This document shows positions 6,795-44,809 of a stretch of 62,561 nt of DNA, piece after piece. A program made the translations under genes and the position numbers. Position 1 is the stretch's first letter, and every line of letters starts with the position of its first letter. Source of the DNA: a virus (Duplodnaviria > Caudoviricetes); IMG/VR virus record IMGVR_UViG_3300045993_000669, positions 1 through 62,561 of that record; one strand, given 5' to 3'. The notes below the pieces were generated by a model that saw only the letters and a list, made by a program, of their open reading frames with translations, did not search any database and was not told where the DNA came from.

Positions 6795-7624
6795 TGTGGG
6801 TCAGCCAATATCCCCCTTGCCTTCTCGGCCTTTCGCTCAAGGGCCGTTTCGGCATTTTGGTAAAGCGCGTCGATAACGGCGTACGCTGCCCGACAGTTCA
6901 TATACACCTTGAAAATATTCCCTTCCGGACAGACCTTGACCTTGGTTTGTGCGACGGTTTTGCAGAACGTGAGGAACTGATCCATCAGAGTTTCGCTCCC
7001 ACGGAGGGCGAGATAAGGCTTTTTGCCATTGCAAATGATCGATCCATCTCCATCGATCGTCCCTCTCCAGAAGTTTGGATTCAGTTCAAGGCCATATGTG
7101 CGTGCTGTGAAAGTTTTGCGCTCAGTGATGCCAAAGGAGGCGAGATCGCCGACCATCCTCTCGGATACGACAGTGACGAGCGCGCAGCCATTGTCTTTTA
7201 TGGCACGGCCTTTGATGTAGGAAACCTGTCCGGGGGGGTAGGTTCCTATGGGAGCGTCAGTTCCAAGGAAGATTCGGAACTTCTCCAAATGTGCCAGATC
7301 CTTAATGCTCAAATGGAGCCGCACCTTATTTCCCATAATGCAGCCGTCAGCCATCAAAAATCCGCACCAATAGGCGGAGTCTGGGGTAACCGTGGAGAAT
7401 GCCGAGTGGTTGACCGTGTATCTGCGGTTCCCAATCCATTCGCCACGGGACAGGATAAGTTGTTGGGCGTCAGTCCGGGCTCGGGCGCATTTTGCTCGCC
7501 TCACGATGCAGGAGACGTTCCAGTCGTTTATTCCCATGATGGCCGCAATGTTCTTGGGCCGATCGCCTGCCGTGTACCGGGCTATGACTTCGGCGCGGGC
7601 GTCGTCGGATATAATGTATCGCAT
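6776..7624 (-). CDS. Free-standing LAGLIDADG homing endonuclease with N-terminal HTH
   Basis: Two motifs AYWCGFLMADGCI and NFWRGTIDGDGSI; C-terminal LERKAEKA; lower GC than flanks. Confidence 0.85.
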   Translation of the reverse strand: MRYIISDDARAEVIARYTAGDRPKNIAAIMGINDWNVSCIVRRAKCARARTDAQQLILSRGEWIGNRRYTVNHSAFSTVTPDSAYWCGFLMADGCIMGNKVRLHLSIKDLAHLEKFRIFLGTDAPIGTYPPGQVSYIKGRAIKDNGCALVTVVSERMVGDLASFGITERKTFTARTYGLELNPNFWRGTIDGDGSIICNGKKPYLALRGSETLMDQFLTFCKTVAQTKVKVCPEGNIFKVYMNCRAAYAVIDALYQNAETALERKAEKARGILADPHYRQTG

Positions 7625-17397: not shown

Positions 17398-18000
17398 TCA
17401 GTTCACCGCCTCGGCTGCGGTTGGGGGCGTTTCGTCCAGATCGACCATGAACGAAAACTCTTGCTGGTTCAGCAAAGCGACCAGCGATGGCAGCGGCTCG
17501 AACCCGAGGGTCCGAATCCACATCTCGGCCCCGGAGCGTGATTGGCCGCAGCGGATCGCAAGCGCGATCTTCGCCATCTTGAGTTTGACCGACAGTTCTT
17601 CCGGGGCCGCCGCTGGTACCGGTCGGCCATAGCTTCCGGTCTTGCGGATCGTCGGCAGAAGGTCCGCCGTCACCCATAATCTGAACCGGTATGCCTTGGT
17701 CCCCTCCTTCATCGCCGCGTTGGAACGGAGGATTAGGGCATACAAACCGCTCTCGGAGACAATCACGCGCTCCAAACCGGTGGTTGACCCCTCGGTTTTG
17801 CCTAGGGGGGTATCGGAGTTTCCTATGGTAATGACGTCTTTTTCGTGCGGCGCGAGGACTCTGACGGCATCGGAGGGGTTCTTTAAGCCGGTGATTGGGC
17901 CGATATCGGCCACGATAAACCACGGTTCGCCGTCCCGCATGATGGATCGGATGACGGTATCGGTCTCAAACAGGTATGGTATAAGGTCGAAGGTGTTCAC
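17398..18000 (-). CDS. BRO-N domain antirepressor-like protein
   Basis: DGEPWFIVADI, VSESGLYALILRS, FRLWVTADLLPTIRKTGSY; AAGGAG RBS. Confidence 0.9.
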   Translation of the reverse strand: MNTFDLIPYLFETDTVIRSIMRDGEPWFIVADIGPITGLKNPSDAVRVLAPHEKDVITIGNSDTPLGKTEGSTTGLERVIVSESGLYALILRSNAAMKEGTKAYRFRLWVTADLLPTIRKTGSYGRPVPAAAPEELSVKLKMAKIALAIRCGQSRSGAEMWIRTLGFEPLPSLVALLNQQEFSFMVDLDETPPTAAEAVN

Positions 18001-33485: not shown

Positions 33486-34240
33486 GCCAAATCCCCGAAT
33501 TTGTTGCCCAGCATCCCGGCCACGAGGGCGTCCAGTTCCGCGGGACTTCCGGGTTCCGGCCTGTCGCCGTATTCGGCCTCGGCCGGCGGCACGATCGCAG
33601 CGAACGCCTGATATGCTCCCAGGCTCACGGCCTTGGCTTGGAGGGCTTCCAGTTCGTCGGAAAACTGCTCCAACGCATCAGACAGTTTCTTGATGAACGC
33701 TTCGTCCCTGCCCGTCTCGGTCATGTAGAGCGGCATGCGGTTCTGATACGAGACGAAAATCGCCCTGTCCGCCTCGCACACGAAAAGCTGCCCCTGGACC
33801 TGACAAACGTAATCAGAGCCATGACCGAACAGCAGCCGCTCCAACTGCACCGGGATTGTCGGGCATTTCGACTCGGCTGTGATCGCAATCTTGTCTCCGG
33901 CCATCACCACGCGGTCAGGCGATGCGCCGAACCTGCCATCCTCGGTTTCAACAAAGCCGATTGCCTTGGTCTCGATGTCGTTCAGCATCTCCATCTGGGC
34001 CACGGCGAACTGTTCTTGCTCTCGCCCGTCCTGGATATGGGAAATGCGATCAAGGCTGTCCGCCTGCCATCGCAACAAACGTCCGGCGATGATCCTGACC
34101 GCGTATTTATGACGCGCCTCCGCCAGTTTCTGGGTCTTCGGCGTAATTACATGGTGGAACTCCGAAGCCGTGGGAATCACGGCCCGTCGTTGATACCAAT
34201 CCGCGCTCCCCTGCGATAAATCCCAAAACAATCGTGCCAT
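33482..34240 (-). CDS. YqaJ / lambda-type exonuclease
   Basis: QGSADWYQRR..PTASEF, GASPD, ESKCP, YVCQVQGQL. Confidence 0.9.
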   Translation of the reverse strand: MARLFWDLSQGSADWYQRRAVIPTASEFHHVITPKTQKLAEARHKYAVRIIAGRLLRWQADSLDRISHIQDGREQEQFAVAQMEMLNDIETKAIGFVETEDGRFGASPDRVVMAGDKIAITAESKCPTIPVQLERLLFGHGSDYVCQVQGQLFVCEADRAIFVSYQNRMPLYMTETGRDEAFIKKLSDALEQFSDELEALQAKAVSLGAYQAFAAIVPPAEAEYGDRPEPGSPAELDALVAGMLGNKFGDLA

Positions 34241-34833
34241 TACACGCCACCCCTGATCTTGAAATAGATGCGGGCACAGGCCCGGGCATCGACCAGGGCA
34301 TCGTGGGCGCCGGGCAGTTCCTCGCCAAAGAAGTGCTTGATGGCCTCGCCAAGATTGGGAGACTTCGGCCCCGTGAACCCAGCCGCGATCTGCCGCTCCG
34401 TTGGCGGGAGTTTCAGGATGGGCTTTGCCGCCGCGCATGTGTCAAACGAAGCCCGCTTCTCGATAGCTTCGATGAAATCCCGCTCGATGCCGTAGCGGGT
34501 CATGGCGATCCGCATAATCCGATCATCGAACGGTGTATTGTGTGCCACCCGGAGCGAGCAAACACCCTGCGACATGATGTATGCCGCTACAGCCTCGTTT
34601 TCTGGCACGCCTTCGTCCATTGCGCGCTCATGGCTGATGCCGTGGATCGCGGTGACCTCAGGCGATATCGTCCATCCGTTCGGCTTGATGATCATCGTCT
34701 TGGCCCGCGCCTCAGTGCCGTCGTCAGCGTGGCGGATGAGCGCGATCTGCACCAAATGAGGCTGGTTCGGATCGTTCGACCGTGCCTTGAAATCCGGCAG
34801 GCCGGTTGTCTCCACGTCGTACACGAGGATCAT
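34240..34833 (-). CDS. DnaQ-like DEDDh 3'-5' exonuclease
   Basis: YDVETTGL, VAHNTPFD, AHDALVDA. Confidence 0.9.
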   Translation of the reverse strand: MILVYDVETTGLPDFKARSNDPNQPHLVQIALIRHADDGTEARAKTMIIKPNGWTISPEVTAIHGISHERAMDEGVPENEAVAAYIMSQGVCSLRVAHNTPFDDRIMRIAMTRYGIERDFIEAIEKRASFDTCAAAKPILKLPPTERQIAAGFTGPKSPNLGEAIKHFFGEELPGAHDALVDARACARIYFKIRGGV

Positions 34834-35618
34834 GTTTGCGCCTCCCTTTTCTTGTTCTGGGCGATGAACCCAAGCAACATATTCTTCACGGCGAGGTAGG
34901 GCGCTCCGTTCTCCAATTCCTCGAAACTGTGGATCGTGCCCCCACCGTCCACGTTCTGGAACATACGTTGCAGTATCACGCTTTCCTGTTGTCTGGCCTC
35001 AACGCAGAGGTCGGCCAATTCCTGCACCATTGCGCCGTCGATGAACTTCTGCCCGCCCCTCACCCCGTCGTCGTCCATGTTCGCGAAAACGACGTTGAAC
35101 GCCCCGCAAAGGGCATACCGTTTCAGGTAGGTCTCGGTCGATCCGCCGCCGTGCAGCACGGTTTTGACCGCTTTCCCCTGCGGCCCCATCGTGTCGGCGG
35201 GCGCCTCGCGGTGGTACAGTTTGGTGTGCCGGCCAAGCGAAACGGACACTTCGACGCGGATGTTTCCAGGGGTCAGCGGCGGTATCGTGTTCGATGATAC
35301 CGAAAACCCGTGCTTGACGTAGATCGGCCGGATCGCGGCGTCCACGTGTTCCAGTTTGGCATACATGCTCCGGGTCTGGCTGTTCTCGGTGCGGCGCACC
35401 ACGGGCATGATCTCGGCTTGGCATAGGTTCATCGCGGCGTTGAACGCTTCCTCGGCCTGCCGCGCCTGTTCCCGCTCTTGCAGCGCCACCAGCCTGTCGA
35501 ACATCTCCGGGTTCAGGTCCGGCGAACTGGCCAGTTGCAGGATGCGGGTTAGGATTGCTCCGCTGTCGGACGTGGCAACCGCGCCCTCCGGCACAACGGC
35601 GATCTCGGTGTCTGTCAT
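34830..35618 (-). CDS. ERF-family single-strand annealing protein
   Basis: YAKLEHVDAAIRP and GSTETYLKRYAL...DDDG. Confidence 0.85.
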   Translation of the reverse strand: MTDTEIAVVPEGAVATSDSGAILTRILQLASSPDLNPEMFDRLVALQEREQARQAEEAFNAAMNLCQAEIMPVVRRTENSQTRSMYAKLEHVDAAIRPIYVKHGFSVSSNTIPPLTPGNIRVEVSVSLGRHTKLYHREAPADTMGPQGKAVKTVLHGGGSTETYLKRYALCGAFNVVFANMDDDGVRGGQKFIDGAMVQELADLCVEARQQESVILQRMFQNVDGGGTIHSFEELENGAPYLAVKNMLLGFIAQNKKREAQT

Positions 35619-36016
35619 GGCTCGTCCTTCCATTCTCCGGCTTCGATCAGGAACGCGCGGGCCTCGGCGCACAACGCTTCCAACTTCACGATGCAGTCTT
35701 GCTGTAGGGTCGCCGTGCGCGTCGTGCTGTGAAGTCTGGCAACGATGTCGTTCCGCTTTTGCTTTGCGAGGATGGCGACGACTTCCTGTTCGGCTCGATG
35801 GCCAAATCCGATACGGGACTCACCGCCAATCTGGAATCCTTCATTGGTGGAATACCTTGGTTTCCGTTTGAACCGCCTGCCTCCAATAATGATCTGTGTA
35901 TCCGTCACGCGGTCGATCTTCCGGCGCGCATAACGCGGCATCCATCCGCCTTCAAACTCGATCACCTCATCCCCAGGCCCCAGGTCGGCCAGCGTCCGCT
36001 CCTTTGTGTCGGTCAT
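35615..36016 (-). CDS. Hypothetical protein
   Basis: Coupled ORF. Confidence 0.55.
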   Translation of the reverse strand: MTDTKERTLADLGPGDEVIEFEGGWMPRYARRKIDRVTDTQIIIGGRRFKRKPRYSTNEGFQIGGESRIGFGHRAEQEVVAILAKQKRNDIVARLHSTTRTATLQQDCIVKLEALCAEARAFLIEAGEWKDEP

Positions 36017-37924: not shown

Positions 37925-38241
37925 TCGAGAGCGTCCAAACTCTCTGCGATGCCTGCGCGTATGTTCCTCTTTCACTAAAAGAGGGCAAGGAACACGGCGC
38001 ATTTTTCCTGTTCGGCCTTTTCTGGGTTTTGTTCTTTGCTTTTTGGTACACATTCGGAAAACGTCGTGACTGAGATTGCAGGCCTCTCCTGCGCGTGCGG
38101 CGAGACGGACCTGATCGCGGTGGCGCCCGGATCGGAGCCGGAAAAGGTGGACCTGTTTACCGCCCGCATCGCGATCTCCCATGGCACCCCCGCCGTGGCT
38201 TGGTGCGCCGCGTGCTGGCCCACGAAAGCGGCGGCGGTAAG

Positions 38242-38751
38242 GTGACGGACTACGCCCCGCTCCCCGGCGTGATCCTGTTCCTGGATTTGGCGGGCACCAT
38301 CGGCTGGGCGGCAGGGCGCAAGGGCGACGATCCCCCGGCGATGGGCGCGATCAAACTCCCGGACGGCCCGCACTACGGCAACCGGCTGATGGCGGCGGAG
38401 AACGCGCTGATCGATTTGATCGAGACGCACCGGCCCGCCAGGATCGTCTGTGAGGCGCCGCTGAGGCTCAAGGCGCAATCCAACGCTGCGACGGCCCGCT
38501 GGCTGTATGGCCTGTTGGCCTACTGCCACGGCGAGGCTGCGCGATACCAACTGCCTGTGGAGGAAGTGGACGCCGACAAATGCCGCAAGGCGGTGCTGGG
38601 CCAATCGCGGGTGACGGCGGACCAGAAGGCGCGGGGGCTGACGATGAAAATCCTTTCGTTGCGATATTGCCGATATCGGGGATGGAACCCACCGACGCAC
38701 GATGCCGCCGATGCCGCGGTGATGTTCTATTACGTAATGACGAGGCGATGA
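38242..38751 (+). CDS. RuvC-like Holliday junction resolvase
   Basis: LFLDLAGTIGWA, IVCEAP, HDAADA acidic motifs. Confidence 0.75.
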   Translation: MTDYAPLPGVILFLDLAGTIGWAAGRKGDDPPAMGAIKLPDGPHYGNRLMAAENALIDLIETHRPARIVCEAPLRLKAQSNAATARWLYGLLAYCHGEAARYQLPVEEVDADKCRKAVLGQSRVTADQKARGLTMKILSLRYCRYRGWNPPTHDAADAAVMFYYVMTRR

Positions 38752-38776
38752 GACTCTTTGAATTAACTAAGGAATG

Positions 38777-38806
38777 TTGTAGGTTCGTTCCGTCGCGTGG
38801 AATAAT
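38777..38806 (+). promoter_or_regulatory. Putative promoter for pentamer array 1
   Basis: TTGTAG-18 nt-AATAAT with extended TG. Confidence 0.5.
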
Positions 38807-38818
38807 CCACCGGCCCAA

Positions 38819-38927
38819 GGCTGGGCTAGGATCGGCGTGTCCGGGACAGGCAGGGCGTGGCAGGCATGGCTGGTCAGGGATCGGCAAGGCTTGGCGGGGC
38901 AGGGATCGGCGCGGCAAGGCGAGGCAA
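38819..38927 (+). repeat. GGC-NN pentamer array 1 (putative guide RNA): 8 + 13 pentamers split by GGCA
   Basis: Strict 5-nt periodicity parsed by hand. Confidence 0.9.
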
Positions 38928-38931
38928 TCGG

Positions 38932-38957
38932 GGCGGGGCAGCAATGTCCCGCCTTTC
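38932..38957 (+). terminator. Hairpin terminator closing array 1
   Basis: GGCGGGGCA-GCAA-TGTCCCGCC followed by TTT. Confidence 0.65.
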
Positions 38958-39053
38958 GCTATTGCGAGCGACGCACAATGGTATAAGGTGACCGGCGGCG
39001 GCAGGGGTGCGCTAACACCCCAGACCGCCTGATCCGAACCTTGGAGATGAGCC

Positions 39054-39671
39054 ATGGCCCGAACTGTGAAAAAGCCTACCACGAATCCGTCTCAGACGCA
39101 GGGCATTGAGTTGCCGCGTTTCGATCTTCAACGAATGCAAATCCGACTGATCGGGGACGCCCCGCTGATTTGCCACGCATGGAGCCAAAAAGCCAAACAG
39201 CAAATGCTGGACAAACAGACGAAGCAGGCCAAGGCTGCGCGAGCGGCCAAGGACCCGATGCAGGACTTCCTTGATAGCCTCTATCCTTTTCCCGGCGGCG
39301 GATACGGCTTCCCCGCTATTGGGTTGAAGTCTTCCGCCGTCGATGCGTGTTCTCATGTTGAGGGAATAACGAAAGTCGAAGCGCGCGGCGCATTCCACAT
39401 CCAGGCCGAACTGGTAAAGATTGAAAGTGGCGAACCAACCATGCGCGAAGACATGGTAAGAGTCGGCCTTGGAACGGCTGACATCCGATATCGCGGACAG
39501 TTTTTAAAGTGGGCGATCAATGTTCCGATCACGTTCAACGCCGGGGTGTTGTCCGTTGGGCAGATCACAAATCTGTTCAACGTCGCCGGATTTTCAATCG
39601 GAATCGGCGAATGGCGGCCGCAGCGGGACGGCATGTTCGGGCTGTTCCACGTTGCCCGCGAGGGCGAATAA
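39054..39671 (+). CDS. Cas7/RAMP-like RNA-binding protein (VIPR-like effector)
   Basis: IGDAPLICH, GFPAIGLKSSAVDA, C-terminal G-rich loop GIGEWRPQRDGMFGLF; flanked by pentamer arrays. Confidence 0.7.
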   Translation: MARTVKKPTTNPSQTQGIELPRFDLQRMQIRLIGDAPLICHAWSQKAKQQMLDKQTKQAKAARAAKDPMQDFLDSLYPFPGGGYGFPAIGLKSSAVDACSHVEGITKVEARGAFHIQAELVKIESGEPTMREDMVRVGLGTADIRYRGQFLKWAINVPITFNAGVLSVGQITNLFNVAGFSIGIGEWRPQRDGMFGLFHVAREGE

Positions 39672-40219
39672 TGGCAGCGCGTCCATCAAGGCGGCAGGCG
39701 GAACCGGCCCGTCCGCCGCCGCGACCGGCCAATCCGCAAATGATTTATCGTTTCACGGCTGGGGCGCAACTTCCGGTGGACGCGCAAACTGCTGGCGAGG
39801 CGTTGGAACGGATACGGCGGCACCGTGGGGCGTTCTTCACGCCGGCCGATGTCGTGGAGGCGTCCCGCTTGCCCCGGGCGTCGTTGCATCGTTGTTTCGA
39901 ATGGGATGATGCGGTGGCGGCGGCTGCCCACCGGATCACGCAGGCCGGATACCTCATCCGGCACGTCGAAGTCATTCCGGCCGCCGGGACGAACACGCCG
40001 CCGGCGAGGGCTTTTGTTTCTGTCACTCAGGACGGCGGGCGGTCGCGGTCTTACACGTCGATAAGTGCGGCGATGCAAGACGCAGGATTCCGCGCGCAAA
40101 TACTGGCCCAGGCACTCGCGGACGTTGAGTCGTTCGTCCGGCGGTATGACCAGTATTATGGCGTTGCTGAATTGATGTCGGTGGTAACCGCGAAGATCAA
40201 AACGGCGGCGGCGGAGTAG
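39671..40219 (+). CDS. Partner protein of the RAMP-like gene
   Basis: TAATG coupling; LHRCFEWDDAVAA..HR..QA motif. Confidence 0.75.
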   Translation: MAARPSRRQAEPARPPPRPANPQMIYRFTAGAQLPVDAQTAGEALERIRRHRGAFFTPADVVEASRLPRASLHRCFEWDDAVAAAAHRITQAGYLIRHVEVIPAAGTNTPPARAFVSVTQDGGRSRSYTSISAAMQDAGFRAQILAQALADVESFVRRYDQYYGVAELMSVVTAKIKTAAAE

Positions 40220-40223
40220 ACTT

Positions 40224-40690
40224 GGCAGGCGAGGCATGGCGCGTCCACGCAAGGCGGGGAGCGGCGCGGTAAGGACGGGCTGGGCGGGGCATGGCAGGCC
40301 AGGACGGGCAAGGCGTGGAGTGGCCGGGATCGGCTCGGAACGGCTGGGCAGGGCAGGCGTGGAACGGCAGGGTGCGGCATGGCATGTCGCGGCGGGTCTA
40401 GGCGAGGCAGGCGAGGTTGGGCACGGCTAGGACGGGCGTGGAGTGGCATGGCGAGGCTGGGCAGGCGTGGCGGGTCGGGGCACGGTCGGGCGGGGCGCGG
40501 CTGGGACGGGCGCGGCAGGGCAGCCAAGGCGGGGCATGGCAACGCACGGCGAGGCAGGCACGGAATGGCAGGGCGAGCAAGGGCACGGTGGGTCAAGGCA
40601 TGGCAGGGCAGGCGAGGAGTGGCACGGCAAGGATCGGCAAGGAATGGCACGGCGCGGCGCGGCTCGGCAGGCTTGGATCGGGAACGGCAT
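40224..40690 (+). repeat. GGC-NN pentamer array 2 (putative multi-guide RNA): 8 units delimited by GGCA
   Basis: Units of 13, 11, 10, 10, 11, 6, 10 and 11 pentamers. Confidence 0.92.
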
Positions 40691-41012
40691 GAGCCTGACC
40701 GACTACCAGATCAGGAGCCTTCGCACCCTGGCAGCCGCGGGCGTGCCTCTGCCGGATATCGCGAAGCAGTTGGGCGTGCCGGTTTCCCGCGTCAGCCACG
40801 CGGCCCATTCGCTGGGGGTTGTCCTGACGACGAAGCGTTACAAGACCAGGATGGAGAAGCGCGCGGCCAGGGACACAGATGCGTCGAAGGCGGAACGGAC
40901 GCTGGCGACGGCGCACGCGCTGAACGACGCCAAGACCGCGCTCCGCCGGGAGATCGCGCTGGCGAAGGCCGAGGCGGCAACTTCGCCGCCGTACAGGGGA
41001 TCATGGGAATGA
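40689..41012 (+). CDS. HTH protein
   Basis: GVPLPDIAKQLGVPVSRVS. Confidence 0.65.
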   Translation: MSLTDYQIRSLRTLAAAGVPLPDIAKQLGVPVSRVSHAAHSLGVVLTTKRYKTRMEKRAARDTDASKAERTLATAHALNDAKTALRREIALAKAEAATSPPYRGSWE

Positions 41013-41371
41013 CCGGAACACACAGGGCCAACGGCGGCTACGCGAGGGCGGAGAAGCTATCGACCGCCCGCCGTTCCGAGATCGCACGGAAAGCGGCGAA
41101 CGCGAGATGGGCCAAATCCGCAAATGATTTACCAATCGACACGGCTGTTGTCGAAGCCTGGAACAGCGGAATCCTTTCGCAAAAGCAAATCGGCCGGAAA
41201 TTCAGGATCACGGAAAACCGGGTGGCGTATCTGGTCCGTGCCGCCCGGCTGGCTGGGATGAAGGTCCGTGCTGCTCGGGATAAGGTGCCGCACGAGGCTG
41301 TGGTGACGCGGGCGGAGTTCGAGGCGTTGGAGCGGCGGATCGCGGCGTTGGAGCGGGGGAAACGGGGATGA
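41009..41371 (+). CDS. Protein with GG.ARA.KL....RSEIARKAA.ARW motif plus HTH
   Basis: Motif visible; LSQKQIGRKFRITENRV. Confidence 0.65.
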   Translation: MTGTHRANGGYARAEKLSTARRSEIARKAANARWAKSANDLPIDTAVVEAWNSGILSQKQIGRKFRITENRVAYLVRAARLAGMKVRAARDKVPHEAVVTRAEFEALERRIAALERGKRG

Positions 41372-41567
41372 GGACGGTTATCCTGCTGCCCCTCCGGCTC
41401 GGCCATTTCGCCACGCGCAGGAATATCGCGATCACTTCGCAGAATCGGCACGCGTTCTCCGCGGCGCAACACGACGGCCTGATATCGATCACGCCGATTA
41501 CCAGCACGACGGCCTGGGTTGAACTGACCGCCAAGGGCCGGGCCGAGATCGATCGGAAGGGGGGAGC

Positions 41568-42263
41568 GTGAAGCCACGCTGCGAGATCATTGGGAACGCC
41601 ACGCTGATTTTAGGCGATTGCCGCGAGATACTCCCGACGCTCGGGCCGGTGGATGCCGTGGTGACCGACCCTCCGTATGGGATAGCGACGGTCTGGAAGG
41701 GCGGAAACGGTTATGGTTGGGGACGTGATCGTGCTGAACGCAATGCTTGGGATAGTGCGCCTCCGTCACCCGAGACAATCGGCACGATCAGAGATATTTC
41801 TAATCAGCAGATAATCTGGGGAGGAAACTACTTCCCGCTTCCTCCGTCACGCGGCTGGCTTGTCTGGAAAAAACCCGGCAGTGGATTCAGCCTGTCCGAT
41901 GCAGAATTGGCGTGGACCAACATCGATCAGCCAGTCCGATGCTTGGAAGTGCATAGACTTACGGCTCTGAATGGGGAGTTGTCGCCCGGCGGCCCGGTGC
42001 GGCCTGATCACCCTACACAGAAGCCAATCGCACTGATGGCATGGTGCTTGGGTTTCGTTTCAGGCACGATTCTCGACCCCTTCATGGGCAGCGGCACGAC
42101 CGGCGTGGCCTGCGCGCGGCTCGGGCGGCGGTTCATCGGCATCGAGATCGACGAGAATTATTTCAACATAGCCTGTCGCCGGATCGAGGACGCCCAACGG
42201 CAGGCCGATCTGTTCGTGACGCCCGCGCCCGTGCCCAAGGCGGTCCAGACCGAACTGCTCTGA
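41568..42263 (+). CDS. N6-adenine/N4-cytosine DNA methyltransferase (beta class)
   Basis: VTDPPYG, HPTQKP, LDPFMGSGTTG. Confidence 0.92.
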   Translation: MKPRCEIIGNATLILGDCREILPTLGPVDAVVTDPPYGIATVWKGGNGYGWGRDRAERNAWDSAPPSPETIGTIRDISNQQIIWGGNYFPLPPSRGWLVWKKPGSGFSLSDAELAWTNIDQPVRCLEVHRLTALNGELSPGGPVRPDHPTQKPIALMAWCLGFVSGTILDPFMGSGTTGVACARLGRRFIGIEIDENYFNIACRRIEDAQRQADLFVTPAPVPKAVQTELL

Positions 42264-42593: not shown

Positions 42594-43994
42594 ATGGTTG
42601 ATGGATCGCTCTTCGGGCTGCGCCAGCCGCCGTCCAACCAGCAGGCCGAACAGGCCCTGCTTGGCGCGATCCTGTCCAACAACAAGGCCATGGCGCGGTG
42701 CGAGGGGCTGACGCCGGACCACTTCATCGATCCCGTGAACGGGCGGATTTTCAGCGAGTGCCAGCGGCTGATCAATGCCGGGCGCCTCGCCGATCTCCTG
42801 ACCCTGCGGACCATCTTTGAAAACACCGGGTTCCTGGAAGAAGCCGGGGGAATCGCCTATCTCGCGGGACTTCTCACGGCCACGACCGGGATTATCAACA
42901 CCACCGAGTACGCCCGGGTGATCGCCGACACGGCCCGGCTGCGGCAGGCCATCGACATCGGGGAACGGCTGGTGAACGAAGCCTACGCGGGCGGCGGCGA
43001 CCCGCAGAGGCTGTTCCTGGACATAGCGGCGGACCTGGACAGGCTCGGGGCCGCGCGCCGGGAGAACGCCACCACGACCCTGGCCGATGCCATGCGGCAG
43101 GCCGAAGAGGCCATGGCGCGGGCGCAGGACGGCCAGACGGCGGGCGTCTCCACCGGCTTCCGCTCCTTCGATCTGCGGCTTGGCGGATTGGAGCCGGGAT
43201 TCGTCTACGTCCTGGCCGGACGCCCATCCATGGGGAAATCGAGCCTCGGTCACCAGATCGCGATGAACGTGGCCCGCGCCGGGGTTCCCGTGCTGGAATT
43301 TTCCCTGGAAATGTCAGCCGCACAACTCGGCCGGCGGACCCTGGCGACGGCGGCGAACGTACCGATCGAAGCCATGAAATCGGGCCGCGTGAACATGCTG
43401 GACGCCGAGGCCATCGTGCGCGCCAGGGCCGAACTGTCATCGCTGCCCCTGGCGATTATCGACGCGGGCGGCCAGACGCCAGGGCAGATCGCGGCGGCGG
43501 CGCGTGCCCAGAAGCGCAAGGCCGGTCTCGGCCTGATCATGATCGATCACCTGAACCTCGTGCGTGCCGAGGACGCGGACGCCAAGCACGGGGGGACCTG
43601 GGCGACGGAGCGGGCCAGCGGCGCCGTTCTGGAAATGGCCAAGGCATGCGATTGCCCCGTGCTGCTGCTGGCGCAACTGAGCCGGGGCGTTGAAGGCCGG
43701 GAGGACAAGCGCCCGGTTCTGTCGGATCTGCGGCAGGCGGGCGCCATCGAGCAGGACGCGGATGCGGTCGGGTTCGTGTACCGGCCTGAATACTATCTCG
43801 GGCATGAGCCACAGGCGAAAACCGGGGAGAAGGCGGAATCCTTCGCCGCGCGAAGAAACGATTGGTTTGCCGATAAGGAGAAACACAAAGGCAGTGCAGA
43901 GGTCATCTGGGCAAAGGTGCGAGACGGGGAACCCGGAATCGACAAGCTACGGTTCGACGCTCAGACGGCCACGTTTTGGGAAGAACCCAGGTGA
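42594..43994 (+). CDS. dnaB: Replicative DNA helicase
   Basis: AEQALLGAIL, AGRPSMGKS, LAQLSR, SDLRQAGAIEQDAD. Confidence 0.95.
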   Translation: MVDGSLFGLRQPPSNQQAEQALLGAILSNNKAMARCEGLTPDHFIDPVNGRIFSECQRLINAGRLADLLTLRTIFENTGFLEEAGGIAYLAGLLTATTGIINTTEYARVIADTARLRQAIDIGERLVNEAYAGGGDPQRLFLDIAADLDRLGAARRENATTTLADAMRQAEEAMARAQDGQTAGVSTGFRSFDLRLGGLEPGFVYVLAGRPSMGKSSLGHQIAMNVARAGVPVLEFSLEMSAAQLGRRTLATAANVPIEAMKSGRVNMLDAEAIVRARAELSSLPLAIIDAGGQTPGQIAAAARAQKRKAGLGLIMIDHLNLVRAEDADAKHGGTWATERASGAVLEMAKACDCPVLLLAQLSRGVEGREDKRPVLSDLRQAGAIEQDADAVGFVYRPEYYLGHEPQAKTGEKAESFAARRNDWFADKEKHKGSAEVIWAKVRDGEPGIDKLRFDAQTATFWEEPR

Positions 43995-44809
43995 GCAACG
44001 CGGCCCGGGAGTGGGCGTTCAACCTCCCCATCACCGGACCTAGGAAGTCCGTCCTAGTGGCTCTGGCGCAACATGCCGATGAGCAGGGGCTTTGCTGGCC
44101 GTCCATATCCCGTCTCGTGCTTTATTCCGGGTCCCAGGAGCGGGCCGTCAGGAACGCGCTGCGTGACCTGGAGGAAGCCGGTTTGGTGATCACTGACCGG
44201 TCAAAAGGACGGGTCGCGAGCCACTACAGGCTATCGTTCAACCCGGCATCTGATGCAAAAGACCCGGCACATGATGCCCCGTTGCCAGAACCCAACCCGG
44301 CATCTCATACCATCCAACCCGGCACGTCATACCGCAACCCGGCATCTGATGCCGTTCAACCCGGCACCACATGCCCCCTAATAGTCAATGAACAGTCAAT
44401 AGAATCGTCAATAGAATCGTCAGGGCGATTACCCAGGAAGCGCGTCAAAGCGAAACCGGAAAAGGAACCCGATACCGTCATCCCGGATTGGATCGATGCG
44501 CGGTCCTGGCAAGACTTCCTCGACCATCGGAAAAAGATGCGGCGGCCTCTCACGGCTGGGGCAACGCGGCTCCTGATCGGAAAACTCGACGGCCTCCGAT
44601 CGAAGGGATTTAATCCTAACGAACTTTTGGACACGGCGACAATGAACGGCTGGCAGGGGGTGTTCGAGCCGAAGACCGCGAACGGGCAGCGGGCGCCGCC
44701 GGCATCAAAAATCGCATGGATGAAAAACATGTTCGGCCCACAGGCCGATCCCGAGCAAGACCGGTTCGATCTCGACCTAAACCCTGAAAGGCCCAAAGAC
44801 CATGAGTAA
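43991..44809 (+). CDS. Replication initiator (HTH_36 / lambda O-like)
   Basis: KSVLVALAQHADEQGLCWPSISRL; internal iterons; C-terminal WQDFLDHRK...NGWQGVF. Confidence 0.85.
   Translation: MSNAAREWAFNLPITGPRKSVLVALAQHADEQGLCWPSISRLVLYSGSQERAVRNALRDLEEAGLVITDRSKGRVASHYRLSFNPASDAKDPAHDAPLPEPNPASHTIQPGTSYRNPASDAVQPGTTCPLIVNEQSIESSIESSGRLPRKRVKAKPEKEPDTVIPDWIDARSWQDFLDHRKKMRRPLTAGATRLLIGKLDGLRSKGFNPNELLDTATMNGWQGVFEPKTANGQRAPPASKIAWMKNMFGPQADPEQDRFDLDLNPERPKDHE
44238..44372 (+). repeat. Origin iterons, 6 x ACCCGGCA core
   Basis: Copies at 44241, 44262, 44295, 44317, 44337 and 44359 inside the initiator gene. Confidence 0.8.

Follow-up and report, generated by a model that had tools for sequence, protein, structure and literature searches.

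A phage locus with a Vipr homologue and staggered pentamer arrays, very probably a VIPR system

Genes and arrays at the locus

The locus described here lies on a phage contig of 62,561 nucleotides (the window, analysed over its whole length; IMG/VR record IMGVR_UViG_3300045993_000669), which is filed as a virus record and carries head, tail fibre, terminase, Erf, DnaB and O-like genes. It consists of an intergenic leader, a short array of pentamers followed by a hairpin, two overlapping genes, and a second, longer array that runs up to the next gene (Table 1). The phage is from a wetland or pond, and a GcrA-like regulator and a DNA methyltransferase adjoin the locus. Names in the table follow VIPR (Viral Interference Programmable Repeat), an RNA-guided system for silencing DNA that is related to CRISPR and was first reported in 2026 (bioRxiv 10.64898/2026.04.26.720920, 10.64898/2026.04.26.720927, 10.64898/2026.10.15.759431). 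In the mechanism reported there, a filament forms on pentamer RNA, holding the GG motif and displaying the NN dinucleotides, which read a gapped target. Described systems are small, with just vipr and vap as genes; they occur mostly in viruses and are flanked by non-coding tandem YNNGG (GGY/NN) repeats.

Table 1. Features of the locus, with positions in the window.
Feature	Position	Strand	Basis
Intergenic leader, presumed promoter region	38752..38818	+	Between the stop of a RuvC-like ORF (38751) and the first pentamer
Array 1, unit 1: 9 GGH-NN pentamers, ending GGCAG	38819..38863	+	Phase-aware parse
Array 1, unit 2: 13 pentamers, its first G being the last G of unit 1	38863..38927	+	Phase-aware parse
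Hairpin of 11 bp with a GCAA loop, then UUUCGCUAUU, which likely terminates array 1 or caps its 3′ end	38930..38955	+	
vipr, coding for the 205-aa Vipr homologue (ancestral RAMP/Cas7-like)	39054..39671	+	Homology, fold
Putative vap-like accessory gene; product of 182 aa (start at the coupled ATG) or 159 aa (start at M24, 39740)	39671..40219	+	
Array 2: 8 staggered vrRNA units, 90 pentamers	40228..40670	+	Periodicity, parse
Array 2, unit 1: 14 pentamers	40228..40297	+	
Array 2, unit 2: 12 pentamers	40297..40356	+	
Array 2, unit 3: 11 pentamers	40356..40410	+	
Array 2, unit 4: 11 pentamers	40410..40464	+	
Array 2, unit 5: 12 pentamers	40464..40523	+	
Array 2, unit 6: 7 pentamers	40523..40557	+	
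Array 2, unit 7: 11 pentamers	40557..40611	+	
Array 2, unit 8: 12 pentamers	40611..40670	+	
Trailing partial unit: 3 pentamers, extending to just before the next gene (ATG at 40689)	40670..40684	+	Parse

The list of ORFs contains the 205-aa gene exactly as the initial annotation gave it, and the 182-aa ORF downstream does overlap its end, in the motif TAATG. However, homologues of the second protein begin at residue 24, and therefore the shorter product is as likely as the one from the coupled start. A promoter that had been claimed ahead of array 1 was not recovered: a consensus scan of positions 38600-40900 returned no sigma-70 promoter.

Both arrays are real but slightly longer than first counted. 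Array 1 holds 22 pentamers in two in-phase units over 38819-38927 on the + strand (21 in the initial annotation; the array detector spans 38863-38937), and array 2 has the eight units described, with 90 rather than 82 pentamers. Together, the ten units hold 7-14 repeats each, and nine of them hold 9-14. With an array defined as at least 7 of 10 in-phase GG[CT], the 62.5-kb window contains only these two, each on the + strand, and its − strand has no array. Order-2 Markov simulations of the window produced no array in 100 runs, and when sequences were simulated from the composition of each array region, coverage as high as that observed occurred in 0 of 1000 cases for array 2 and 3 of 1000 for array 1. 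The same detector also recovers the experimentally shown vrRNA regions of phage SUSP1.

The earlier description of the repeat, a near-constant GGC (with the variants GGA, GGT and GTC) followed by two free bases, is borne out over 116 parsed pentamers. G occupies position 1 in 114 of these; position 2 has G in 105 and T in 7. Position 3 is C in 89, A in 20 (17%) and T in 7, and never G. Positions 4 and 5 carry little information (0.20 and 0.06 bits) and are close to random. The commonest trinucleotides were GGC (79), GGA (19), GTC (7) and GGT (5).

The hairpin after array 1 had been called a terminator. It is stable (−20.1 kcal/mol, z −3.9, with 0 of 200 shuffles as stable), but a strict terminator rule left it uncalled because the U-tract is weak. 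At the trailing unit beyond array 2, neither sequence reading nor a terminator scan revealed a hairpin or terminator.

The Vipr homologue and its partner

The 205-aa protein belongs to phrog_4652 (E = 1.4e-25) and is homologous to the Vipr of SUSP1 over nearly its full length (E = 3.2e-3 in a single-sequence search, falling to 1.2e-8 and 2.8e-13 in searches with profiles A1 and A2). The A2 match is to PDB chain 36pp_D, SUSP1 Vipr itself, and pairs residues 24-198 with 4-190; the described Vipr family takes in SUSP1 Vipr and the X1U2U4 lineage. An hhalign comparison with the annotated SUSP1 ORF gave a probability of 98% (E = 3e-13). Identity is low, at 38 of 171 aligned residues, and Pfam, NCBIfam and PADLOC hold no family for the protein.

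In SUSP1 Vipr, contacts with the GGY motif or with the backbone of the target are reported for H17, K33, R138, D177, W178 and R179 (10.64898/2026.04.26.720927). These correspond to H41, K57, R147, E186, W187 and R188 here, so that five of the six are identical and the sixth is a D-to-E change. R147 and R188 are each invariant in alignment A2 (63 of 63 sequences). Note that this mapping was made with hmmalign, as MAFFT --add had placed the C-terminal half of the SUSP1 protein wrongly.

The initial annotation had pointed to RAMP/Cas7 hallmarks and proposed a fold comparison, and the predicted structure agrees with them. A single-sequence AF2 model was unusable (pLDDT 40), so an alignment-based model was used instead (pLDDT 95.1, pTM 0.86). 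All Foldseek matches listed for this model were CRISPR effector-complex entries (best E = 5.2e-6), the first 13 of them type III-A Csm. In VIA-align, the model matched Csm3 (9g9a_D) at Z 11.2 (rmsd 4.0, 149 aligned residues); 27 chains scored Z of at least 8, and ranks 1-33 were all CRISPR-Cas proteins or effector complexes. The modelled protein thus has a Cas7/RAMP fold. Its G183-x-G185-E-W-R-P segment aligns to the SUSP1 G-loop, and R147 lies inside a β-hairpin (residues 129-150), identified as the thumb from the alignment rather than from a superposition on Vipr.

By analogy with SUSP1, one Vipr protomer would bind each pentamer, with H41, R147, E186, W187 and R188 sequestering the GG(C/T/A) bases and leaving the NN dinucleotides exposed. 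The SUSP1 pocket is said to exclude purines (10.64898/2026.04.26.720927), and an A at position 3 in 20 of 116 pentamers therefore counts against the assignment of the locus.

The protein encoded downstream belongs to phrog_15946 (E = 2.9e-21). Of 93 vipr loci, 78 encode a homologue of it, in most cases 9-100 nt downstream of vipr, and we regard it as a conserved, putative accessory (vap-like) protein. It has no match in Pfam, NCBIfam, PADLOC or PDB, and neither a PDB profile search nor the ESM Atlas returned a named relative. It has no recognised DNA-binding domain, a weak HTH_IclR match (E = 0.22) being the sole hint of one. Published accounts of VIPR place 670 Viprs in a tree, distinguish seven types and name the accessory families vap1-vap6; vap1 of SUSP1, the vap family that we compared, is unrelated to the partner (hhalign probability 0.04%).

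Staggered guides and a candidate target

The association of vipr with pentamer arrays extends beyond this phage. The initial annotation had suggested a check for co-occurrence, and homologues do adjoin same-strand arrays at 82 of 93 loci, with an array on the other strand at 1 of 93. The G+C content of the array-bearing loci ranges from 0.43 to 0.69. Upstream arrays are found in 6 of the 93 relatives, only one of which (L006) also has a downstream array. No guide is common to the window and its relatives, which fits hypervariable guides. Contigs from four DNA metagenome runs are identical to the window, and therefore no guide turnover is visible; the sequencing runs listed for the sequence include no RNA dataset.

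All nine unit junctions in the window are one-base overlaps, with a 4-nt step after GGCAG (GGCA[G]GC). In array 2, each unit closes with GGCAG, the final G of which also opens the following unit. A one-base overlap was likewise found at 206 of 220 junctions among relatives, and it matches the staggered vrRNA layout, in which neighbouring vrRNAs are reported to overlap by 1 nt (10.64898/2026.04.26.720920, fig. S18 legend). Units abut without a tail or ribozyme between them, and no Rfam hammerhead or other relevant family was detected across 38000-41500 (E up to 1). At each boundary, a repeat one base short would shift the register by −1. We propose that a continuous filament could therefore not run on, and that it is most likely this register shift, rather than a tail or ribozyme, that marks where a guide ends. 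For the arrays of relatives, a conserved 3′ tail was considered and rejected: hairpins like the one after array 1 close many of them, but their excess is modest (median −17.1 versus −15.2 kcal/mol, Mann-Whitney P = 0.0014), and we read them as terminators.

Transcription of the arrays from the + strand would yield about ten vrRNAs of 7-14 GGH-NN repeats. The filament would pair the NN dinucleotides with double-stranded DNA as NN-x-NN-x, the skipped base usually falling on a codon wobble position, and genes carried by rival phages or other mobile elements would be repressed at the level of transcription. Guides of the relatives may follow this reading rule. At an NN identity of at least 0.9, 4 of 272 guides found a match with a 1-nt skip and none with skips of 0 or 2 nt, compared with 2 of 816 shuffled guides. 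These four best cross-targets represent three independent targets. In all four, the skipped base is at the wobble position and the guide has the sense of the coding strand; they could therefore not pair with mRNA, which fits DNA targeting.

One guide of the window has a candidate target. The read bases of the unit starting at 40297 match an excisionase-like gene (HTH_17/phrog_66) in a metagenome contig (L110) at 20 of 20 positions, and a 63%-identical homologue (L111) in a complete 85-kb phage at 19 of 20. Skipped bases fall on wobble positions in both, so that codon positions 1-2 are read, and no shuffled guide matched as well (0 of 200 and 0 of 100). In the contig, the protospacer is on the + strand and the HTH gene on the − strand; the guide is thus antisense to the HTH mRNA. 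In both targets, agreement is poor over the final two NN, which come from the terminal GGCAG pentamers (1 of 4 and 2 of 4 bases). The assignment of this gene as a target is suggestive only. A single exact metagenome match over 20 specified bases is close to chance for a collection of that size (a rough estimate of about one, not computed), and the match in the 85-kb phage is not independent, because it follows from homology.

Nine of the ten guides had no match above shuffled controls in the window, the 93 homologue loci, contigs L110 and L112, or the 85-kb phage, where the 40297 guide was the only one to match across the whole genome. Under the 1-nt skip rule, no guide exceeded shuffled-order controls on its own contig or the 93 loci. 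Exact scans of IMG/VR gave 0 matches for units 40410, 40356, 38863, 40228 and 40297; a 16-base core of unit 40611 gave 13, all at chance level on the remaining 8 bases. The 272 guides of relatives showed no enrichment on L110, L111 or L112.

A fuller model can be drawn from these observations, and we offer it tentatively, as a possibility that we consider doubtful in its entirety. In staggered arrays, a register shift (GGCN[G]G) would by itself mark each boundary by halting the Vipr filament. The protein would measure and delimit guides along a single long transcript of the operon, none of a tail, a ribozyme or a Cas6-like enzyme being involved. The GGCAG that closes a unit would serve as a handle rather than be read, and the accessory family would be one unrelated to vap1. 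One guide would silence an excisionase-like regulator, common to a P4-type primase element and the 85-kb phage, through codon positions 1-2.

Assignment to VIPR and alternative readings

We find that the locus is very probably a phage-encoded VIPR system of the staggered-array kind. The initial annotation had noted a resemblance to VIPR, and this now has a foundation in a homologue of SUSP1 Vipr with its contact residues kept, a RAMP fold, and arrays at 82 of 93 related loci. The sequence anatomy, homology, fold and co-occurrence are established for the locus. Its proposed mechanism (one subunit per pentamer, GGC gripped, NN read, a gapped target) is the published VIPR mechanism and is likely to apply here by homology. 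Transcription, processing, RNP assembly, DNA binding and silencing would likewise proceed as in the published SUSP1 system. Points that weigh against the assignment are the negative sigma-70 scan, the nine guides with no match above shuffled controls, the A at position 3, and a partner protein that is unrelated to SUSP1 vap1 and has no recognised DNA-binding domain.

Other readings of the same features deserve consideration. The nearest solved folds of the protein are Csm3 and Cmr4, from RNA-targeting type III complexes, and the only candidate target of a window guide lies antisense to the HTH transcript. One might therefore suppose that guides in a Vipr filament pair with RNA made by rival elements, in the manner of Cas7 backbones in type III systems. 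This is very improbable: VIPR of SUSP1 is reported to bind double-stranded DNA, with silencing from either strand, and the four best cross-targets of relatives are in coding-strand sense, unable to pair with mRNA. We consider it equally improbable that the locus descends from a VIPR system but has lost its silencing role, with arrays that are decaying or that act as decoys or sponges for the Vipr of other phages. Both ORFs are intact, the contact residues are conserved, GG is kept in 105 of 116 pentamers, unit lengths of 9-14 fit the published vrRNA length of 9-16 repeats, and the identical sequence recurs in several metagenome runs. Such decay or decoy use would nevertheless account for some degenerate pentamers (GTC, CGC, GCA, GCC), for the one unit with only 7 repeats and for the nine guides in ten without a found target, and solo or decoy vrRNAs are described in satellites and phages (10.64898/2026.10.15.759431, section 8).

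It is more improbable still that the tracts are not guides at all, but G-rich coding or structural DNA (a Gly/Arg-rich ORF, a G-quadruplex or a protein-binding site) beside an unrelated RNA-binding protein. Long ORFs can indeed be drawn over array 2 (for example, 40379-41371, 330 aa), and the tract is 74% G+C and 51% G. However, a 5-nt period is incompatible with a codon period, NN is almost information-free while GG is fixed, and strand-specific tracts adjoin vipr homologues at 82 of 93 loci over a G+C range of 0.43-0.69. That no guide of the window recurs in relatives also fits hypervariable guides.

A class 1 CRISPR-Cas system was considered and rejected. TRF found no CRISPR-like array, with direct repeats of about 24-40 nt alternating with spacers, in the window. 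A PADLOC scan of the 48 window ORFs found no core cas gene (cas1, cas2 and cas10 included), its only matches being methyltransferases and a generic DEDDh exonuclease labelled CRISPR-associated, and the two operon ORFs had no PADLOC match in a separate scan. This agrees with the earlier statement that cas1/2, a nuclease and a classical CRISPR array are lacking, the generic exonuclease match aside. The likeness to Cas7 proteins such as Csm3 and Cmr4 is one of architecture, comprising a RAMP fold with an RRM core, a glycine-rich loop and a β-hairpin thumb; by analogy, a filament on guide RNA would interrupt pairing at regular steps. Sequence identity to the Vipr homologue is, in contrast, only 6-14%, and the reported step is 5 nt with 2 read bases in VIPR but 6 nt with 5 read bases in CRISPR.

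Among VIPR systems, the closest likeness is to the staggered-array kind (10.64898/2026.04.26.720920). Common to both are phage encoding, a Vipr homologue with an adjacent accessory gene, the lack of CRISPR repeats and core cas genes, and GGY/NN pentamers in units that overlap by one base; here, nine of the ten units hold 9-14 repeats and the other holds 7. Unlike them, the present locus has A at position 3 in 17% of pentamers and a second, upstream array, and is known from its sequence alone. Escherichia phage SUSP1 carries a type II VIPR (NC_028808, 28031-29061; PDB 36pp) with the same order of upstream vrRNA, vipr, vap and downstream array, a homologous protein and conserved GGY-contact residues. 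However, its two detected downstream repeat tracts lie ~60 nt apart and its vrRNA is reported to have an invariant 3′ tail with a pseudoknot, whereas the units here abut without a tail. SUSP1 repeats are mostly GGT and those here mostly GGC, and the accessory genes are unrelated.

The locus is a further example of a system already described, and the picture of VIPR is unchanged by it. Because VIPR is so recent an addition to the RNA-guided systems, each well-dissected natural locus is useful in defining their range. This one adds family-wide figures for one-base-overlap junctions and for co-occurrence of the partner gene, together with a partner family distinct from SUSP1 vap1. It also offers candidates for the bench, namely, ten natural guides and one predicted target gene. 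The footprint on that predicted target is codon-phased, like the one reported for SUSP1 against its satellite.

Identity and layout of the VIPR locus

The locus is very probably a phage-encoded VIPR system of the staggered-array kind. All hallmarks of VIPR open to in silico testing are present, together with the staggered architecture, and those that define CRISPR-Cas are lacking; the locus therefore appears to belong to a known kind. The initial annotation had likened the locus to reported VIPR systems, and Vipr homology, the predicted fold and array co-occurrence bear this out. As it had also described, two coupled genes, vipr and a vap-like partner, lie between two arrays.

Features of the VIPR locus, with array units from the phase-aware parse
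Feature	Position	Strand	Description
Leader, short	starts 38752	+	upstream of array 1
Array 1	38819-38927	+	22 pentamers, units of 9 and 13
Hairpin, strong	38930-38955	+	-20.1 kcal/mol, z -3.9
vipr ORF	39054-39671	+	205 aa
Partner ORF	39671-40219	+	its ATG overlaps the vipr stop in TAATG
Array 2	40228-40684	+	90 pentamers: eight units of 14, 12, 11, 11, 12, 7, 11 and 12, plus three trailing

Array 2 extends to the ATG of the following gene at 40689. Of the 116 pentamers parsed, 114 begin with G and 105 have G as the second base. The third base is C in 89, A in 20, T in 7 and G in none, and the last two bases are near-random. With the threshold set at 7 or more in-phase GG[CT] out of 10, no other array is found on either strand of the window. 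Order-2 Markov simulation of the window (100 runs) produced no array, and among 1000 simulations with the arrays' own composition, coverage as high as that observed came up in none for array 2 and in 3 for array 1. As a positive control, the detector recovered three arrays, one of them upstream and two downstream, at the locus already studied by experiment in SUSP1, an Escherichia phage with a published VIPR system. A terminator had been proposed after array 1: the hairpin there is stable, but a strict terminator rule made no call. The promoter claimed at the locus gained no support from a consensus scan. Downstream of the array 1 hairpin and ahead of the vipr ribosome-binding site, a second stable stem-loop at 38990-39035 might regulate vipr expression; taken as a whole, the 136-nt leader before vipr folds at -61.6 kcal/mol (z -3.4).

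Pfam and NCBIfam hold no family for the 205-aa protein, which PHROGs places in phrog_4652 (function unknown). Its family comprises 4524 proteins at E ≤0.001 among 4798 candidates (90% clusters) or, at 50% identity, 3387 representatives at E ≤0.001, with 483 of these at ≤1e-30. The sole significant match among PDB sequences was 36pp_D, the solved SUSP1 Vipr protein, at E 3.2e-3 for the sequence alone and at 1.2e-8 and 2.8e-13 for profiles of 24 and 63 sequences, respectively. This alignment is collinear across nearly the full length, and an hhalign comparison with the annotated SUSP1 ORF returned 98% probability (E 3e-13). In the cryo-EM study, named residues grip two guanines and a pyrimidine, and one touches the target backbone (10.64898/2026.04.26.720927). 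Aligned from SUSP1 to the window with hmmalign, these positions correspond as H17 to H41, K33 to K57, R138 to R147, D177 to E186, W178 to W187 and R179 to R188; all 63 relatives share R147 and R188.

The alignment-based AF2 model had a pLDDT of 95.1 and a pTM of 0.86; a single-sequence model (pLDDT 40) was discarded. Among the matches listed by Foldseek against the PDB, all were CRISPR effector-complex entries (best 9ash_F, E 5.2e-6, TM 0.44). A search independent of Foldseek ranked Csm3 first (9g9a_D, Z 11.2, rmsd 4.0, 149 residues), with Z of at least 8 for 27 chains and only CRISPR-Cas protein or effector-complex entries at ranks 1 to 33. The model thus has the RAMP/Cas7 fold that had been proposed, and the refuting condition named for it, lack of that fold, does not hold.

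The vipr gene (39050-39650) has 54 to 57% G+C versus 63.5% for the window. It failed a GC3 filter (≥0.70) passed by the RuvC-like ORF at 38095-38751, the DnaB-like ORF at 42594-43994 and 72 others. The low G+C and GC3 suggest that the cassette was acquired fairly recently.

A conserved cassette and its array grammar

We compared 93 relatives' loci, comprising all 13 confirmed in genome contigs plus, from IMG/VR, the best 80 of 422 confirmed; several are near-duplicates, so they do not represent 93 independent events. Homologues had been expected to occur with pentamer arrays, and 82 of these 93 loci have a same-strand array no more than 1 kb upstream or 2 kb downstream (placements: 77 downstream, 6 upstream); only 1 of the 93 has one on the opposite strand. 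In at least two of the 11 array-less loci (L027 and L052), the sequence stops less than 70 bases from the gene. A partner homologue is present in 78 of the 93, usually starting 9 to 100 bases after vipr; in four loci it lies upstream of vipr, alongside the array. The window's neighboring RuvC-like and HTH genes are not conserved in this set. Because vipr, partner and array are kept and the neighbors are not, the unit is vipr plus partner plus array, which, judged from these loci, is a mobile cassette. Both genes occur in cultured Gordonia phages, including UmaThurman, Pipp and ODay, and Mycobacterium phages, Donkeykong and Brocalys among them, carry a vipr homologue.

The partner falls in phrog_15946 and in virus-only ESM Atlas clusters, with no relative in Pfam, NCBIfam, PADLOC or PDB (best hint HTH_IclR, E 0.22). 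Its homologues (153 to 162 aa) start at the window protein's Met24, and thus the first 23 residues, which are Pro/Arg-rich, may not be translated. Six vap families are named among VIPR accessory genes in 10.64898/2026.04.26.720920. The partner family differs from SUSP1 vap1, to which profile comparison found no relation (probability 0.04%).

All window units end in GGCAG, whose final G doubles as the first G of the following unit, so that the step there is 4 bases rather than 5, as found at 9 of 9 window junctions. Among relatives (93 loci, including the best 80 of 422 from IMG/VR), 206 of 220 internal junctions, not de-duplicated, are 4-base steps, which come after GGCAG (135), GGCCG (37) or GGCTG (22). 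This is the commonest junction type in 65 of the 66 loci having any junction, and the median in-phase run is 11. The one-base-overlap layout is that of the staggered arrays in the fig. S18 legend of 10.64898/2026.04.26.720920, where individual vrRNAs come from positions overlapping by 1 nt. Rfam detected no hammerhead or other family between units. In SUSP1 the detector places two repeat tracts ~60 bases apart, whereas the window units have no long tail between them. A terminator-like hairpin closes many relatives' arrays, as it does array 1; array 2, unlike array 1, has no terminal hairpin, and transcription may run on past it into the following gene. Position 3 is A in 17% of window pentamers versus 5% of 3367 relatives' pentamers, as counted by a detector biased toward GGY, and the window has a second, upstream array. 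A search for 5-nt periodicity reported in 10.64898/2026.10.21.760802 yielded 99 VIPR-like clusters, of which some use non-canonical trinucleotides.

By homology with the steps published for SUSP1 in 10.64898/2026.04.26.720920, 10.64898/2026.04.26.720927 and 10.64898/2026.10.15.759431, each vrRNA would be coated by Vipr protomers, one per pentamer. Vipr would flip out and grip the GGY bases and display the NN bases, which would pair with target DNA, leaving one unpaired base between successive pairs, and the complex would repress transcription of rival mobile elements. We infer that a one-base-short repeat would break the filament register and so set guide ends there.

Candidate guide targets

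Targets were scored by the published NN?NN? rule on both strands. Against the phage itself and the 93 loci (including the best 80 of 422 from IMG/VR), none of the ten window guides scored above shuffled-order controls, in agreement with the lack of self-targeting reported in 10.64898/2026.04.26.720920. Exact IMG/VR scans with six guides returned nothing or chance-level matches. The first ten NN of one array 2 guide (40297-40356) had a single match in an exact scan of the metagenome collection, at 1163-1191 of contig L110; by a rough estimate, not computed, one exact 20-base match is about the chance expectation for so large a collection. The match lies within a 115-aa HTH_17 / phrog_66 "excisionase and transcriptional regulator" gene adjoining a P4-type primase (Zn-ribbon, DUF7146, Toprim), and 9 of 9 skipped bases fall at codon wobble positions. 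A complete phage of 85,259 bases that has terminal repeats (L111, G001) encodes a 63%-identical homologue, which matches 19 of 20 of the same bases; this second match follows from the homology of the two genes, although their skipped bases differ at 8 of 9. Shuffled guides equaled this guide in 0 of 200 and 0 of 100 cases. The candidate footprint resembles that reported for SUSP1 on its satellite's recombinase. The other nine window guides had no match in the 85,259-base phage, and the window phage has no homologue of the candidate target gene.

We also scanned 272 distinct relatives' guides, last pentamer dropped, against 886 kb of sequence. Four reached at least 0.9 NN identity under a 1-nt skip and none under 0- or 2-nt skips, compared with 2 of 816 shuffled guides under a 1-nt skip. 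One, from L035 (3820-3879), is an apparent anti-VIPR guide: of its 24 read bases, 23 match L002 vipr (1526-1560) at conserved MLDKQMKKA codons. Near-identical guides from L071 (6868-6917) and L074 (6929-6973) match L079 at 7029-7057 (19 of 20 and 17 of 18), in a phrog_498 gene, a ParB-methyltransferase fusion, that belongs to a related phage; an L068 guide matches another gene of this type, in L077 (18 of 20). In all four, the skip falls at the wobble position and the guide sense is that of the coding strand, which fits targeting of DNA rather than mRNA in this clade, in small numbers. These few matches also fit the targeting of rival VIPR systems by some vrRNAs, as published in 10.64898/2026.10.15.759431. 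The matching L071/L074 guide is a lone guide-sized pentamer unit ~2.3 kb downstream of vipr, separate from the main array.

Phage and community context

The sequencing runs listed for the locus were all DNA runs, with contigs identical to the window. Same-run contigs match parts of the arrays and then diverge into different pentamer-repeat sequence (window 38855, 40489 and 40522; loose ends, runs X1, X4 and X6); thus, other VIPR arrays coexist in those communities.

The window spans the full length of a virus record, and the VIPR locus lies in its replication/recombination module. PHROGs identified a major head protein, tail fiber and spike proteins, large terminase, anti-repressor, Erf-like annealing protein, exonuclease, RuvC-like resolvase, DNA methyltransferase, DnaB-like helicase and O-like initiator, and no integrase among the 46 ORFs scanned. 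The anti-repressor (Ant), Erf-like protein and exonuclease are at 17398-18000 and 34240-35672. The absence of cas genes held up in PADLOC, which found no core cas gene among 48 ORFs, only a generic DEDDh exonuclease match labeled CRISPR-associated and methyltransferase matches. Five bases past array 2 begins a 107-aa HTH protein (40689-41012), weakly GcrA-like (Pfam GcrA, E 0.0026; in NCBIfam E 0.044, well short of the cut-off), with a DNA methyltransferase downstream at 41568-42263 (phrog_67, E 3e-48); together, these hint at an alphaproteobacterial host. Lambda carries its origin iterons within the initiator gene. The O-like initiator gene here (43976-44809) contains two tandem-repeat blocks at 44293-44422, one with 3.8 copies of a 22-nt unit and the other with 3.7 copies of a 12-nt unit, which look like iterons of a replication origin.
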